Virus genome (UHGV): UHGV-1512937
Source of the DNA: a virus
DNA length: 36,416 nt
Direction: 5' to 3' (one strand)
Shown piece after piece: positions 22,577 to 28,122 of the stretch. Both the position numbers and the translations under genes were made by a program. Under the pieces are notes generated by a model. The model was not told the origin of the DNA and did no database searches. It saw only the letters and a list, made by a program, of their open reading frames with translations. Each line of letters begins with the position of its first letter. The stretch's first letter is position 1.

Positions 22577-22827
22577 TGAAAGAATACCGCTATTCCGGCC
22601 CGGCCAGCGGCGTCACGCTGTCGGACGGAACCGAAATCCTGCTCTGGCCGGGGAAGACTGTTTCCCTGCCGGAGGAGCATGACTACGTGAAGGTACTGGT
22701 GGCGCTGAAGCATCTGACGCCGGTATCTGAAGAAATTAAACCCGCCGGCACACCGGCTGTGCAGTCACCAAAGCGCAGGAACGGCGGTGACAGCGAGGTG
22801 AAAACGGAGGACGCCCATGTCAGCTAA
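22576..22827 (+). CDS. hypothetical small protein
   Basis: ~83 aa; ATG overlaps the gp37-like stop; ends overlapping the sheath start. Confidence 0.45.
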   Translation: MKEYRYSGPASGVTLSDGTEILLWPGKTVSLPEEHDYVKVLVALKHLTPVSEEIKPAGTPAVQSPKRRNGGDSEVKTEDAHVS

Positions 22828-24244
22828 CTATCTGCATGGTCCGGAAACCATTGAAGTGGAAAACGGTGCCCGCCCGGTTAAAACGGTGAAATCTGCCGTT
22901 ATTGGCCTGATTGGTACCGCACCAATGGGGGATGTCAATACGCTGGTACAGTGCCTGTCTGAGAAAGACGCTGCGGCATTTGGCAGCCAGTTCACCGGCT
23001 TTACCATTCCACAGGCGCTGGATGCGATTTATGACCATGGTGCAGGCACCGTTCTGGTCATTAACGTACTCGATCCGTCTGTGCATAAAACCGCTGTGGT
23101 CAGTGAGAATGTGTCGTTCGACAAGGCGACAGGCAGAGCCCGGCTGGCTAATCCGGTGGTCGCGCAGCTGGTACTGAAACCGGACAGCGACGGTCAGCCT
23201 TATGTTGAAGGTCAGGACTACTCGCTTGATGCACAGACCGGGGTGATTACTAACCTGGGTAAAAGCATTGCTGCAGATGCAACGGTGAAGGCCAGCTATA
23301 ACTATGCTGATCCGACCAAAGTCACCCCGGCTGATATCATCGGTACCGTTAACGCTGCAGGCAACCGTACCGGCATGAAGCTGCTTAACGACAGTTTTAA
23401 CCTGTTTGGCTACTTCGCCAAAATCCTGATTGCTCCGGTATTCTGCACCCAGAACAGCGTCTCGGTTGAGCTTATCGCCATGGCTGAGAAACTGGGAGCA
23501 GTAACCTATATTGATGCGCCGGTTGGTACCACTTTTGCGCAGGCTCTGGCGGGACGAGGCCCGGAAGGCACCATTAACTTTAATACCAGCTCTGACCGTG
23601 TCCGCCTGTGCTACCCGCATGTGAAGGTATATGACCCGGTGACGAACACGGAACGTCTGGAGCCACTGAGCCAGCGTGCGGCGGGCCTGCGTGCCAAAGT
23701 CGACCTGGACAAAGGGTACTGGTGGTCATCCTCAAATCAGGAAATTCTGGGGATCACCGGCGTGGAGCGCCAGCTGTCGGCAATGATTGACGATCCGCAG
23801 AGCGAGGTGAACCTGCTTAACGAACAGGGGATCACCACGGTATTCAGCAGTTACGGCAGCGGCCTTCGTCTGTGGGGTAACCGGACGGCAGCATGGCCAA
23901 CGGTCACCCATATGCGTAACTTTGAGAACGTTCGCCGCACCGGTGATGTGATCAATGAGTCCATTCGTTACTTCAGCCAGCAGTACATCGACATGCCGAT
24001 TACTCAGGCGCTGATTGATGCACTGACGGAGTCGGTCAACGCCTACGGTCGCAAAATGACTGGTGATGGCGCGGTACTGGGCTTCCGTTGCTGGTTTGAT
24101 CCGGCCCGCAATCCGGAAACGGAGCTGGCCGCCGGGCACCTGTTGCTGAGCTACAAATATACGCCACCACCGCCGCTGGAGCGACTGACGTTTGAGACTG
24201 AGATCACCTCGGAATACCTGTTAACCCTGAAAGGGGGCAACTGA
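22817..24244 (+). CDS. tail sheath protein
   Basis: 475 aa; N-terminal MSANYLHGPETIEVENGARPVKTVKSAVIGLIGTAP and the GLRLWGNRT region are typical of contractile-tail sheath proteins; followed by the tube gene. Confidence 0.85.
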   Translation: MSANYLHGPETIEVENGARPVKTVKSAVIGLIGTAPMGDVNTLVQCLSEKDAAAFGSQFTGFTIPQALDAIYDHGAGTVLVINVLDPSVHKTAVVSENVSFDKATGRARLANPVVAQLVLKPDSDGQPYVEGQDYSLDAQTGVITNLGKSIAADATVKASYNYADPTKVTPADIIGTVNAAGNRTGMKLLNDSFNLFGYFAKILIAPVFCTQNSVSVELIAMAEKLGAVTYIDAPVGTTFAQALAGRGPEGTINFNTSSDRVRLCYPHVKVYDPVTNTERLEPLSQRAAGLRAKVDLDKGYWWSSSNQEILGITGVERQLSAMIDDPQSEVNLLNEQGITTVFSSYGSGLRLWGNRTAAWPTVTHMRNFENVRRTGDVINESIRYFSQQYIDMPITQALIDALTESVNAYGRKMTGDGAVLGFRCWFDPARNPETELAAGHLLLSYKYTPPPPLERLTFETEITSEYLLTLKGGN

Positions 24245-24765
24245 TGTCAAAGATTGAGATAAACCGAATCACGAATGCCAACATCTATCTGGATGGTACT
24301 AACCTGCTGGGACGGGCTGAGGAGGTTAAACTCCCCGATGTCTCCATGATTATGCAGGAACACAAGGCACTGGGGATGGTGGGTAAGGTGGAACTCCCGG
24401 CTGGTTTTGACAAACTGGAAGGCGAAATCAAATGGAACAGCTTTTACCGCGATGCGATGCTGTCTGCCGCGAACCCGTACAAGTCGCTGGCGCTGCAGTG
24501 TCGCTCCAGCGTCCAGCGCTACAGCTCGCAGGGGCTGATCGACGAAATCCCGCTGGTCACCTTCCTGACAATTATGTTCAAGAAGAACCCGCTGGGGACG
24601 TTTAAACAGCACGAGAACGCCGAGTTCTCCAGTAGCTTCACCTGCACGTATATCAGACAGGTACTGGATGGTGAAGAGTTGCTGCAACTGGACTATCTGG
24701 CCAACATCTTCCGCGTCGGTGGCGTTGATCAACTGACTGACTATCGGATCAATATCGGGGGCTGA
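24244..24765 (+). CDS. tail tube protein
   Basis: 173 aa; start overlaps the sheath stop (ATGA); size and position. Confidence 0.75.
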   Translation: MSKIEINRITNANIYLDGTNLLGRAEEVKLPDVSMIMQEHKALGMVGKVELPAGFDKLEGEIKWNSFYRDAMLSAANPYKSLALQCRSSVQRYSSQGLIDEIPLVTFLTIMFKKNPLGTFKQHENAEFSSSFTCTYIRQVLDGEELLQLDYLANIFRVGGVDQLTDYRINIGG

Positions 24766-24767
24766 CG

Positions 24768-25049
24768 GTGAGTGTTGAACTGACTGACAAAGGAGGGCGA
24801 TGTGCGTCACTGGGCATGTCAAATGGTACGTGGTTTACCCTCCTTGATATTCCGGGGGTGGAAACCCTTTTTAATACCCGTAAAACCAATGACCCGATTG
24901 ACTGCACACGTTCAAAGGCCCGCAAACTGGCCGATTTGATTGAAGCATGGGAGCCGCCCGACCACTGGTTCTCCGGCATCGGCAAATCTGAGGGAAAGGC
25001 GCTTCTCATCGCTTTCCTGCGTAACTGCAAGGGTTTTCGCACTTGCTGA
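24768..25049 (+). CDS. hypothetical protein (GTG start)
   Basis: 93 aa ORF filling the gap between the tube and chaperone genes; no RBS examined. Confidence 0.35.
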   Translation: MSVELTDKGGRCASLGMSNGTWFTLLDIPGVETLFNTRKTNDPIDCTRSKARKLADLIEAWEPPDHWFSGIGKSEGKALLIAFLRNCKGFRTC

Positions 25050-25140
25050 CATCACAGGGGCTCCGGCCCCTTCTTCTTAATCTCCTTTAATATCCGTCAC
25101 GTCCACCGCCAGACATACTGCTCTGAATTTACAAAGGAGT

Positions 25141-25482
25141 ATGATCATGTCACAGACCCAGTCCGATACTTTTACGCTGTCTTATCCTTTCACCACTGCT
25201 GCAGGTACCAGAATTGAACAGATTGAACTGAAACGCCTGACAGTAAAAGACCTGAAGCAGGTGCGCAAAATCAACAAAGACCCGGCAGACTGGGACGAAC
25301 CACTGATTGCCCGTAGCACCGGTATCCTCCCGGAAGACCTCGATAACATGGATCTTGCCGACTATATGGAGCTGCAGAAACGATTTCAGAAAATCACTGG
25401 GCTGGGCAAGAGCGACAAAAACACTGATGCAGGCGCAGGGCCTGCTGGCGAGATGGTTCAGGTTTCAGCCGGGGGAGATTGA
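25141..25482 (+). CDS. tail assembly chaperone (P2 gpE-like)
   Basis: 113 aa acidic protein immediately upstream of the tape measure gene; AAAGGAG RBS. Confidence 0.65.
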   Translation: MIMSQTQSDTFTLSYPFTTAAGTRIEQIELKRLTVKDLKQVRKINKDPADWDEPLIARSTGILPEDLDNMDLADYMELQKRFQKITGLGKSDKNTDAGAGPAGEMVQVSAGGD

Positions 25483-25564
25483 TGCCCTCGATACTGACGA
25501 TCTGGAGATGTGGCTGGAGCAGGCTGAAGAGCAAATCAAAAGCGAGTTCGGCGACAATCAGTAA
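25470..25564 (+). other. candidate programmed-frameshift extension of the tail chaperone (+1 or -2 frame)
   Basis: A run of five G (25471-25475) sits 2 codons before the chaperone stop; the +1 frame continues with an acidic, protein-like tail (EIDALDTDDLEMWLEQAEEQIKSEFGDNQ) to 25564. Confidence 0.4.
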
Positions 25565-25656
25565 CAACGTATCACTTAACAGCCGCCAGTCGCGGCTGTT
25601 CTGCATGGGGTTCAGACACTTCCCTTCCGTTTTTTTGCTTTCAGAGGATAGCCACC

Positions 25657-28122
25657 GTGGCCAGTGAATTTTCAGTCGGCGTCATTATTGGCGGCATTGT
25701 CGGGAGCAGCTTCCGCTCAGCCGTCAGTGGCACCCGACGCGCCCTTGATTCCCTTGGTGATACCTCCCGCCGTCTGCAGGAACGCCAGAATGCCTTAACC
25801 CGGGCAACAGAACGTTATGGTCAACTGGGTTCTTCCCGGATGCAGCATCTCAACAGCGAGTTGCTGCGGGTAAGCCGCACCATGGAGCAAATTGAACGTC
25901 AGCAGCGCCGTCTGTCAGCAGTATCAGCCACCGGTGATGCGTTGAAGGCTAACCGCCTGGCGCTCTATGGTCAGGGTGCAGAAACCTATGCTATTGGCAG
26001 AACGCTGGGCGCACCGGTCATGGCCTCGGTTAAACAATATGCCTCGTTTGAATCACAGTTGCGGGATATCAGTGTCACAGGAGACCTGGATGCAAAACAG
26101 GAACGTGCAATTGGCCTGGCTATCAGACAGGCCTCGCTGAAGGTTAACCAACTGCAGGAGTCTCTGTTAGGGGGAGTCGGACAATTAGTTGCTGATGGTA
26201 TGGCCCCCGAACGGGCAGCAACGTTTGCAGAGATGCTTGGAAAGACCGCTACAGCAACCAAAGCCGATATGACCGACCTTGCCAAAATGACTTATGCCTT
26301 CAGCGATGCACTCAGAATCACTGATGCGAAAGAACTTGAACAGGCGTTTGGCATTGCGGCAACAGGAGCCAAACTTGGGTCATTTGAGCTGAAGGATATG
26401 GCAAAAGCATTACCCGGTATGGCGAAAGCCTTCGCTGCTCGTGGTATTTATGGAAAAGATGCGATTACCCAGATTGTTGCCAGTCTGGAGGTCGGTAAAG
26501 GTAGTGGCTCTGCAGAGGAAGCGGTCACCAATATGTCCAACTGGCTGGCAGCAATGGGCCGCGGAGATACCATCCAGAAATATGCTAAAGCCGGGGTGGA
26601 TTACCAGGGGTCAATGCAGAATTACGTCGCTCAGGGTTTTTCGCAGTACGAAGCTTCACTGATGATTGCCAACCGTTTTATCGACAGTAAAGGCAAAGCG
26701 TTTTTGCAGCAATGGAAAGCTGCAGGAGCAAGAGGCGATCAGGAAGGTCAGCAGAAACTCATGGAGTCATTTGGTCTGGCTGAGGTCTTTACCGATATTC
26801 AGACTGTCAACCATTTACTGTCAATGCGACAGGGCTGGGATAAATACCTTTCCAGTAAGCAGGAAATGAATGCTCCGGCTGCAATGTCTACCCTGGATAA
26901 GGATGCTGCAAAGCAGAATGATACGCTTGAAGGTCGCTGGCGCAGAATGCAGATCGGCTTTAATGATTCTGCTATCAGCATCGGGCAATCCTTGCGTCCG
27001 GCTTTGCTCCAGTTGGGTGAAACATTTATTCCTTTAATGGACAGCGTCGGCAAATGGATAGCGGCAAATCCGCAGCTCGTCAGCAGCACCATAAAGGTTG
27101 TGGGCGCATTACTCGCTTTCAGGATGGCCACTATCGGTCTCAAGTTTGGGCTGAATCTCCTTATTTCCCCCTTTGTAAGCGTCTGGAAAAATGCTGTTTT
27201 ACTTCGGGCCAACTGGCTTCGTCTGATGCTCGCACTGGGGGAAGGCGGTAAACTCCGCTGGCTGGTGACAGGCTTTGGTGCCGTCGCCAGAGGAACCAGA
27301 ACACTGGGGGGTGTGCTCTCAGGGGGGCTGGTTCGCGGAATTATGAGCGCCGGGCGTGCCGTTCTCTGGATTGGCCGGGCGCTGCTGATGAATCCCATCG
27401 GTCTCGTTATCACCGCCGTCGCGGCAGCAGCTTACCTTATCTACCGCAACTGGGGCGCTGTCAGTAGCTGGTTTAAACAGCGCTGGGCTGACATTCAGGA
27501 AGCCTTTAACGGCGGCATCGCGGGAATTGGTAAACTGCTGGTTAACTGGTCTCCGGCAGGTCTGCTTTATAAAGCCTTTGCGGCTGCGCTGAAATATCTC
27601 GGCGTTGATTTGCCGGCGAAATTCACCGACTTCGGTGGTCATCTTATTGACGGGCTGATAAATGGCATCAGAAACAAATGGGCGTCACTGAAAACCAGCA
27701 TAACCGGAATGGGTGACAGCATCAGTGACTGGTTCAGCGAAAAGCTGGGCATCCATTCACCGAGTCGCGTGTTTATAGGCTTTGGTGACAATATCGCGCA
27801 GGGTGCCGCCATTGGCCTGCAACGGACCACTCCGCTTGCTGCACTGGCCGGGCAGCGCCTGGCCGCTGAAATGACACCGGATGTTCCCCGTATCCCGTCG
27901 CCGGAAATCATGGCTGCCGGATATTCAGGCCGTGGCGCAACTGCAACCGGCGGTGGAGCGTCTGGCGGTATCCAGGTCAGCTTTAATCCTCAGTTTTTCC
28001 TCAATGGTAAGGAAACCGCAGCGCCTGCCGGGCTGGCTGGTGCCCTGAATATGAGCCTGCATGAGCTGGAAAAAATGCTGGAGCGTCTGCTGGCTCAGAA
28101 ACAACGTAAGGAGTACAGCTGA
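25657..28122 (+). CDS. tail tape measure protein
   Basis: 821 aa (GTG start); long helical N-terminal part, hydrophobic Gly-rich central segment, position after the chaperone pair. Confidence 0.8.
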   Translation: MASEFSVGVIIGGIVGSSFRSAVSGTRRALDSLGDTSRRLQERQNALTRATERYGQLGSSRMQHLNSELLRVSRTMEQIERQQRRLSAVSATGDALKANRLALYGQGAETYAIGRTLGAPVMASVKQYASFESQLRDISVTGDLDAKQERAIGLAIRQASLKVNQLQESLLGGVGQLVADGMAPERAATFAEMLGKTATATKADMTDLAKMTYAFSDALRITDAKELEQAFGIAATGAKLGSFELKDMAKALPGMAKAFAARGIYGKDAITQIVASLEVGKGSGSAEEAVTNMSNWLAAMGRGDTIQKYAKAGVDYQGSMQNYVAQGFSQYEASLMIANRFIDSKGKAFLQQWKAAGARGDQEGQQKLMESFGLAEVFTDIQTVNHLLSMRQGWDKYLSSKQEMNAPAAMSTLDKDAAKQNDTLEGRWRRMQIGFNDSAISIGQSLRPALLQLGETFIPLMDSVGKWIAANPQLVSSTIKVVGALLAFRMATIGLKFGLNLLISPFVSVWKNAVLLRANWLRLMLALGEGGKLRWLVTGFGAVARGTRTLGGVLSGGLVRGIMSAGRAVLWIGRALLMNPIGLVITAVAAAAYLIYRNWGAVSSWFKQRWADIQEAFNGGIAGIGKLLVNWSPAGLLYKAFAAALKYLGVDLPAKFTDFGGHLIDGLINGIRNKWASLKTSITGMGDSISDWFSEKLGIHSPSRVFIGFGDNIAQGAAIGLQRTTPLAALAGQRLAAEMTPDVPRIPSPEIMAAGYSGRGATATGGGASGGIQVSFNPQFFLNGKETAAPAGLAGALNMSLHELEKMLERLLAQKQRKEYS

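Follow-up and report, generated by a model that had tools for sequence, protein, structure and literature searches.

The window, meaning the whole 36,416-nt stretch of virus genome UHGV-1512937 that was analysed, carries a short open reading frame on its given (plus) strand at nt 25141–25482, closing with ...GCC GGG GGA GAT TGA. Its end, and a GGGGG run at nt 25471–25475, lie where the first-pass annotation had placed them. Two in-frame ATGs open the frame (nt 25141–25149), giving a product of 113 aa counted from nt 25141 or 111 aa from nt 25147. The Shine‒Dalgarno sequence AAGGAG, as read at nt 25134–25139, is spaced 1 nt from the first ATG and 7 nt from the second, which makes ATG 25147 the likelier start; the CDS annotated by PGAP begins at the equivalent of this position. 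The product belongs to Pfam family Phage_TAC_7 (PF10109; E = 1.5e-22, 79.8 bits against a cut-off of 25, hence above the gathering threshold) and also matches phrog_166 ('tail protein', 2.9e-32). Judged by homology and gene position, the ORF is a genuine tail assembly chaperone gene of the P2 gpE / Mu gp41 type, read in the zero frame (nt 25147–25482).

The genes for the tail sheath (nt 22817–24244) and tail tube (nt 24244–24765; Phage_tube, 2e-53) both lie 5' of the chaperone, and directly downstream of the chaperone region is the tape measure gene (nt 25657–28122; Pfam PhageMin_Tail, 2.2e-15; PGAP 'phage tail tape measure protein'), which is followed on its 3' side by genes for P2-type gpU, gpX and gpD. 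The chaperone pair thus sits between the tube and tape measure genes, with one small intervening ORF (nt 24768–25049) that specifies a 93-aa protein matching phrog_1239 (5e-48) and falling just under the cut-off for Pfam DUF7739. As P2 and BcepMu have no gene at that position, this ORF may be an inserted 'moron'. A terminator-like hairpin with a T-rich tail (nt 25056–25071) lies 3' of it. Another hairpin (nt 25580–25598; CAGCCGC, 5-nt loop, GCGGCTG), without a T-rich tail, is found between the end of the overlapping +1 ORF described below and the start of the tape measure gene; its arms are kept and its loop is variable in phages PhiKM, KP12 and Phi06.

The closest phage records are PhiKM (classified as a Bcepmuvirus), KP12 and Phi06_2974 B, and of 5426 complete E. 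coli genomes examined, 637 carry the same 600 bases. In E. coli, PGAP names the chaperone 'phage tail assembly protein' and in some genomes also calls a separate 45-aa 'GpE family phage tail protein' (nt 25427–25564); the two ORFs are annotated as separate genes, with no ribosomal slippage. The best explanation of the locus is a gpE / gpE+E' (lambda G/GT-type) chaperone pair of a BcepMu-like prophage with a P2-like contractile tail.

A conserved chaperone frameshift 5' of the tape measure gene is a textbook feature. The acidic continuation EIDALDTDDLEMWLEQAEEQIKSEFGDNQ, which the first-pass annotation had assigned by coordinate arithmetic to the +1 frame, is indeed in that frame relative to the chaperone, and the frame is open from nt 25307 to nt 25564. 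Its predicted contribution to a fusion protein is an extension of 58 codons plus TAA (nt 25388–25564), RKSLGWARATKTLMQAQGLLARWFRFQPGEIDALDTDDLEMWLEQAEEQIKSEFGDNQ, delimited by translation, by +1-frame selection that is clear from about nt 25412, and by a conserved Trp. Searched alone against Phage_P2_GpE (PF06528), the +1 product falls below threshold (14.5 bits against 23, E = 0.025), and the same family is matched by 7 of 14 diverse members of the clade, the best at 3.3e-9. A profile-profile alignment (hhalign) of the +1 extensions of the clade with P2-type E' gave 99.3% probability (E = 2.6e-20) across extension residues 11–57, and the +1 product also matches phrog_8286 (3.2e-32). The domain homologous to P2 E' (GpE) occupies nt 25418–25558, so that homology begins at extension residue 11 (nt 25418), 53 nt upstream of the GGGGG run. 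An NCBIfam scan of the chaperone, the 45-aa +1 ORF and the −1 ORF returned zero matches, and a PDB sequence search with the predicted fusion returned nothing at E up to 1.

Related loci (195) were gathered from a genome collection, IMG/VR and annotated phages, and 192 of them had a significant GpE-like domain match. Of these, 180 encode the GpE domain in the +1 frame, 10 loci of the P2, Pasteurella and Vibrio types use the −1 frame for it, and two carry an in-frame fusion. The 180 come from enterobacterial, Burkholderia, Pseudomonas and Ralstonia phages. A large clade, which takes in Enterobacterales, Burkholderia (BcepMu, phiE255), Pseudomonas and Ralstonia, thus has the +1 arrangement as a conserved property. 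Alignment of homologous chaperone pairs had been proposed at the outset as a way of finding the frame conserved at the protein level; these counts, and the purifying selection on the +1 frame described below, point to the same one.

The −1 direction is the common one for such genes and is used by P2, and the −1 frame of the window is open for 79 codons (nt 25428–25667), reaching into the start of the tape measure gene. The first-pass annotation had recorded this open stretch and taken it for out-of-frame sequence, a view the comparisons bear out: its product matched no family in Pfam, NCBIfam or PHROG, substitutions in this frame among 71 close relatives are almost all non-synonymous and so reveal no constraint, and a −1-frame stop stands at nt 25425–27 in 71/71 relatives. 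With no −1 heptamer at the locus and the GpE homologue in the +1 frame, a usual −1 frameshift has a negligible probability. Homology and substitution pattern thus support a functional continuation of the chaperone in the +1 frame, not the −1 frame.

Substitution pair counts over 71 unique close relatives show how coding constraint passes from one frame to the other. Between nt 25430 and 25460, the +1 frame accumulated 4552 synonymous against 538 non-synonymous differences, and the zero frame 201 synonymous against 4279 non-synonymous. Zero-frame Gly, Ala and Val codons in the same interval hardly ever change at their four-fold-degenerate third base, only one such position being variable. Purifying selection on the zero frame extends to about nt 25410, and +1-frame constraint is seen from about nt 25412, some 60 nt upstream of GGGGG. 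The +1-frame residues of nt 25388–25399 are freely variable among these relatives, and selection analysis alone places the switch only within about nt 25384–25412.

The second ORF therefore overlaps the 3' end of the chaperone gene in another frame and is conserved as protein, and it has no conserved start of its own. This last point bears on the reading implied by the PGAP annotation and by several phage records, in which the +1 ORF is a separate small gene of 45 aa translated from its own ATG at nt 25427 with no frameshift at all. That in-frame ATG is present in the window, and phrog_8286 is a family of just such small ORFs. Among the 71 close relatives, however, Met is kept at this position in only 39, the ATG becoming ACG, ATT, ATA or AAA elsewhere. 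Across the 126 unique +1 loci, an ATG, GTG or TTG with a Shine‒Dalgarno-like motif precedes the GpE domain in only 18, and in 18 a start codon ahead of the domain is wholly absent. Moreover, +1-frame selection and the conserved Trp reach upstream of nt 25427, and the homologous E' of P2 is made only as an E+E' frameshift fusion, according to the annotation of the P2 record. Independent initiation is accordingly considered quite unlikely, if somewhat less so than a −1 shift.

The position of the zero-frame stop differs among relatives, giving chaperones of 92, 106, 108, 111 or 113 aa, and the +1 ORF is intact throughout. This mobility weighs heavily on the site named in the first-pass annotation, where ribosomes would slip +1 or −2 on GGGGG two codons before the chaperone stop, to give a product reading ...VSAG(G)EIDALD... 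with the peptide ...VSAG(G)EIDALDTDDLEMWLEQAEEQIK. The run would permit re-pairing either way (GGG to GGG for +1, GGA to GGG for −2), GGA is a low-usage codon, and Mu, whose chaperone belongs to the same Pfam family, likewise has a G5 run (CGG GGG CGA) as its verified −2 site. The zero-frame stop nevertheless lies upstream of the GGGGG position in 72 of the 126 unique +1 loci, including 40 of the 64 close ones, and in these a shift at the position of the run is therefore impossible; the close relative KP12, for example, has GTT TAG in place of GTT CAG. Of the 64 unique close relatives, 16 lack the run, as do all 62 of the more distant +1-type relatives (78/126 in total), with its codons swapped for CCT GGG, CCA GGG, CCT GTG, CCG GGT, CCG AGT, CCG TCC and others, changes that are often synonymous in the +1 frame and otherwise conservative.

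A shift at nt 25471–75 would, furthermore, join the two frames downstream of the conserved LLARWFRFQP half of the GpE domain, so that this half, which is under strong +1-frame selection, would be lost. RNA folding 3' of GGGGG (nt 25476–25570) gave z = +0.26 and supports no stimulatory structure. A Mu-type −2 shift would call for a G5 run that is conserved and lies inside the zero/+1 overlap in relatives, and the run of the window has neither property in the set compared. Runs of at least five G occur 33 times on the given strand of the window, and this one is explained by the +1 codons CCG GGG GAG (Pro-Gly-Glu), the equivalent of the GpE 'PSE' motif; it is thus unremarkable. The comparative data exclude GGGGG as a conserved shift site and suggest that the run is extension coding sequence only; a shift there in the window itself is regarded as very improbable. 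What stands of the frameshift originally proposed is its direction, upheld by the E' homology and purifying selection of the +1 extension, but not its site, given the many relatives that lack the run or stop before it and the earlier onset of both +1 selection and E' homology.

Public assemblies, mostly from Logan, contain 'fused' chaperones of 135–144 aa (P0010, P0011, P0015, P0068, P0076 and P0077), and these were considered as possible junction evidence and rejected. They carry 1-nt indels in different homopolymers (G5, A5, GGG), and some of them enter the −1 frame. The 138-aa Logan 'fusions' joined at GGGGG arise from 1-nt homopolymer deletions and, since similar deletions hit other homopolymers, are read as sequencing errors; the group as a whole probably represents sequencing or assembly errors that could be mistaken for junction evidence. 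Two loci in which chaperone and GpE are in one frame were likewise set aside as natural in-frame fusions, both looking degenerate or mis-sequenced. One, from Erwinia tracheiphila (L017), differs from a near-identical locus (L106) by a 1-nt deletion in the G run, and in the other, from Apirhabdus apintestini (L021), the fusion results from a 1-nt deletion inside the chaperone domain. Both copies are likely to be decaying prophages or assembly errors.

For each locus, the allowed shift window extends from the last +1-frame stop to the zero-frame stop. The stretch common to these windows over the 126 unique +1 loci measures only 26 nt and spans −8 to +18 around the codon for Phe82 of the chaperone. 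Inside this common segment lies UUU_C (nt 25384–25387), approximately 88 nt upstream of GGGGG, in the context CGA_UUU_CAG (nt 25381..25389), which is the predicted +1 slip site on the basis of its conservation, suppressed synonymous change and the common overlap window. The Phe82 codon is TTT in 121 of the 126 loci, TTG in five and TTC in none, and the base following TTT is C in 121/121. All 27 loci with a GC content of at least 0.60 have TTT here, against a background TTT share of 0.18 among their Phe codons; the high-GC hosts that keep it range from 60 to 68% GC. As a control, Phe17 of the same genes is encoded by TTC in 69 and TTT in 21, and usage is likewise mixed at each of five Asp codons and at one Tyr codon.

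Synonymous change is also suppressed around the site. Among close relatives, the minor-codon fractions at the successive codons CAG, CGA, TTT and CAG are 0.06, 0.01, 0.00 and 0.03, compared with 0.25 on average for the gene, and the rare Arg codon CGA before Phe82 is fixed in 70 of 71. In 114 of the 126 loci a Trp occurs 3–6 codons past Phe82 in the +1 frame (within the first seven extension codons), and the zero-frame residues over it vary, which argues that the +1 frame is read from right after the Phe codon. Contexts of the predicted slip codon in the clade include CGA_UUU_CAG of the window, TCC_TTT_CGC in Burkholderia and GTG_TTT_CGG in Pseudomonas. A conserved slippery sequence within the overlap is thus found in 121 of 126 loci, and its placement suggests that ribosomes slip at UUU_C. 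In bacteria, UUU_Ynn sequences have been described as sites where +1 frameshifting is particularly likely, and the +1 cassette of influenza A PA-X is UCC_UUU_CGU (PMC5009743).

A little further downstream, GGG_N (nt 25399–25402, ACT GGG CTG) offers another possible +1 site, at which tRNA-Gly would move from GGG to GGC to give ...FQKITG/WARATK.... Full re-pairing is possible there in 70 of the 71 close relatives, the codon is GGG in 70 of 71 although other Gly codons of the gene vary, and the site lies directly upstream of the visible +1 selection and of the invariant +1 Trp. The conservation of GGG can, however, also be explained by +1-frame selection on Gly-Trp after an upstream shift. GGG_N is also missing at the equivalent place in five distant +1-type loci from Salmonella, Ralstonia, Burkholderia and Pseudomonas (L112, L113, L109, L114 and L115), all of which keep UUU_C, and it lies right at the limit of the overlap window common to the clade, as set by a locus (L191) whose zero-frame stop is 18 nt past the Phe codon. 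A shift at GGG_N is on balance improbable, while deserving more credence than separate initiation at ATG 25427.

Three other motifs were examined and rejected. An RF2-like GAGGTG GTT TAG is the majority form in relatives, but +1 selection starts about 45 nt further upstream and the window has CAG, not TAG. The possible −2 motifs AG_AGC (nt 25409-13) and GC_GCA (nt 25433-37) occur in 54/71 and 52/71 close relatives, respectively, and neither is universal.

Several observations temper the case for UUU_C. Five related Pseudomonas-type viral contigs (L159, L165, L168, L171 and L193) have GTG_TTG_CGG at the slip codon and an intact +1 GpE ORF; this sequence cannot re-pair in +1 and so counts against the UUU_C model, and no alternative slippery motif is evident in these five. 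Because the loci are related, the counts given above overstate their independence; grouping at 60% identity gives seven clusters, six of them all TTT, and counting each of the six once brings the probability to only about 1e-3. In the enteric branch, UUU is followed in the zero-frame A site by CAG, a codon that is not rare, and no Shine‒Dalgarno-like stimulator was found upstream of UUU_C. Folding of the RNA 3' of UUU_C (nt 25388–25480) gave z = −1.59, supporting no stimulatory structure. In view of the common A-site codon and of these two negative results, slippage at UUU_C could be of low efficiency.

The model considered probable is a +1 slip of tRNA-Phe at UUU_C (CGA_UUU_CAG, nt 25381-89) that would yield a chaperone-GpE fusion of about 138 aa. 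Most ribosomes would keep to the zero frame and produce the ~111-aa chaperone; a minority would enter the +1 frame as the chaperone domain ends, most likely at Phe82, where P-site tRNA-Phe on UUU (nt 25384-86) would re-pair with UUC (nt 25385-87), leaving AGA (nt 25388-90) as the next codon. The shifted ribosomes would then decode 58 +1-frame codons as far as the TAA at nt 25562-64. Counted from ATG 25147, the predicted fusion has 138 aa and reads ...ELQKRF followed by RKSLGWARATKTLMQAQGLLARWFRFQPGEIDALDTDDLEMWLEQAEEQIKSEFGDNQ, its C-terminal part being the GpE (E') domain. If lambda gpG/gpGT and P2 E/E+E' are a guide, the N-terminal part common to both products would serve to bind the tape measure protein and the extension to bring in the tail tube protein (PMC5009743).

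The nearest well-known parallel is P2 gpE / gpE+E', which comprises the same two families (a Phage_TAC_7 chaperone and a GpE extension) in the same slot between tube and tape measure genes (FII and T in P2). In both systems the extension begins at the end of the chaperone domain. The first aligned residue of the extension is number 11 here and number 10 in P2 E', consistent with a shift placed alike with respect to the two domains. In the protein alignment, UUU_C lies three columns upstream of the P2 slip site (GGT TTT TTG). The two differ in direction: P2 enters the E' frame by slipping −1 on a U6G heptamer (T_TTT_TTG), whereas here E' is in the +1 frame and the heptamer is absent. In lambda, the shift is −1 at G_GGA_AAG. 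The likeness to lambda gpG/gpGT is one of arrangement, namely two products with a shared N-terminus, encoded 5' of the tape measure gene, the longer one arising by recoding (PMC5009743).

For Mu gp41, a −2 frameshift has been verified (Xu, Hendrix & Duda 2004, PMID 15469818, as cited in the Mu record and in PMC5009743). Mu and the window have the Pfam chaperone family ('E, or 41 or 14') in common, and in both the extension is in the +1/−2 frame and a G5 run lies near the ORF end. They part company in how the frame is entered. A +1-frame stop just upstream forces the Mu shift onto G5, whereas here G5 is dispensable and the shift would occur about 88 nt upstream; the mechanism in Mu is −2, and the one proposed here is +1 at UUU_C.

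As at the UUU_Y sites of E. coli and PA-X, the P-site tRNA-Phe of the window could move from UUU to UUC (PMC5009743). The PA-X sequence UCC_UUU_CGU and the TCC_TTT_CGC of the Burkholderia branch differ at the last base only. The window itself departs from these precedents in that the following codon is CAG and not a rare Arg codon, and its function as a slip site is suggested by conservation only.

BcepMu gp41/gp42 represents the same module with the same +1 relation, and gp42 contains the GpE-like LKIQPSEIAELD.... TCC_TTT_CGC is found at the aligned Phe, and the BcepMu chaperone is 28% identical to that of the window. In this region (locus L109, from NC_005882; 1489–2250) the public record assigns slippage to gp42/gp43 as a lambda G/T-like pair, not to gp41/gp42. 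By homology, gp41 (TAC_7) and gp42 (GpE-like, +1) are the real pair, and gp43 looks like GC-rich out-of-frame sequence overlapping the start of the tape measure gene.

Tail chaperones of tailed phages have been reported to use −1, −2 or +1 shifts (PMC5009743), and forward shifts make up 350 of the 2718 positive slippery-site cases (~13%) on which PRFect was trained, an actinophage set whose cases nearly all lie in tail-chaperone genes (PMC10885494). The first-pass annotation was right to call +1/−2 the less common direction, one already documented by both sources, and a +1-frame chaperone extension is therefore uncommon and not new. The shift site and the gene pairing in the +1 clade appear to be unannotated so far: a literature search for a published +1 site, or for UUU_C, in BcepMu-like chaperones found none among the papers searched, which is not proof of absence. 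The chances are put slightly better than even that UUU_C at the last conserved chaperone Phe is a single +1 recoding signal, ancestral to the whole clade with this P2-like tail module. If so, annotation of the clade would be systematically wrong, both in the separate 'GpE family' CDS and in the BcepMu gp42/gp43 assignment, and the correct model (+1 at UUU_C, fusion of ~138 aa) would mend the annotation of a widespread prophage family.

Shifts of −1, −2 and +1 were already part of the general view of tail-chaperone recoding, and that view is unaltered. If correct, the model would add a natural bacterial example of UUU_Y +1 frameshifting represented by more than 100 distinct sequences. With an ancestral UUU_C, a single chaperone family would employ −1 (P2), −2 (Mu) and +1 (BcepMu-like clade) shifts. 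The comparison also shows that the direction of frameshifting has switched between homologous chaperone/extension pairs in the course of evolution.
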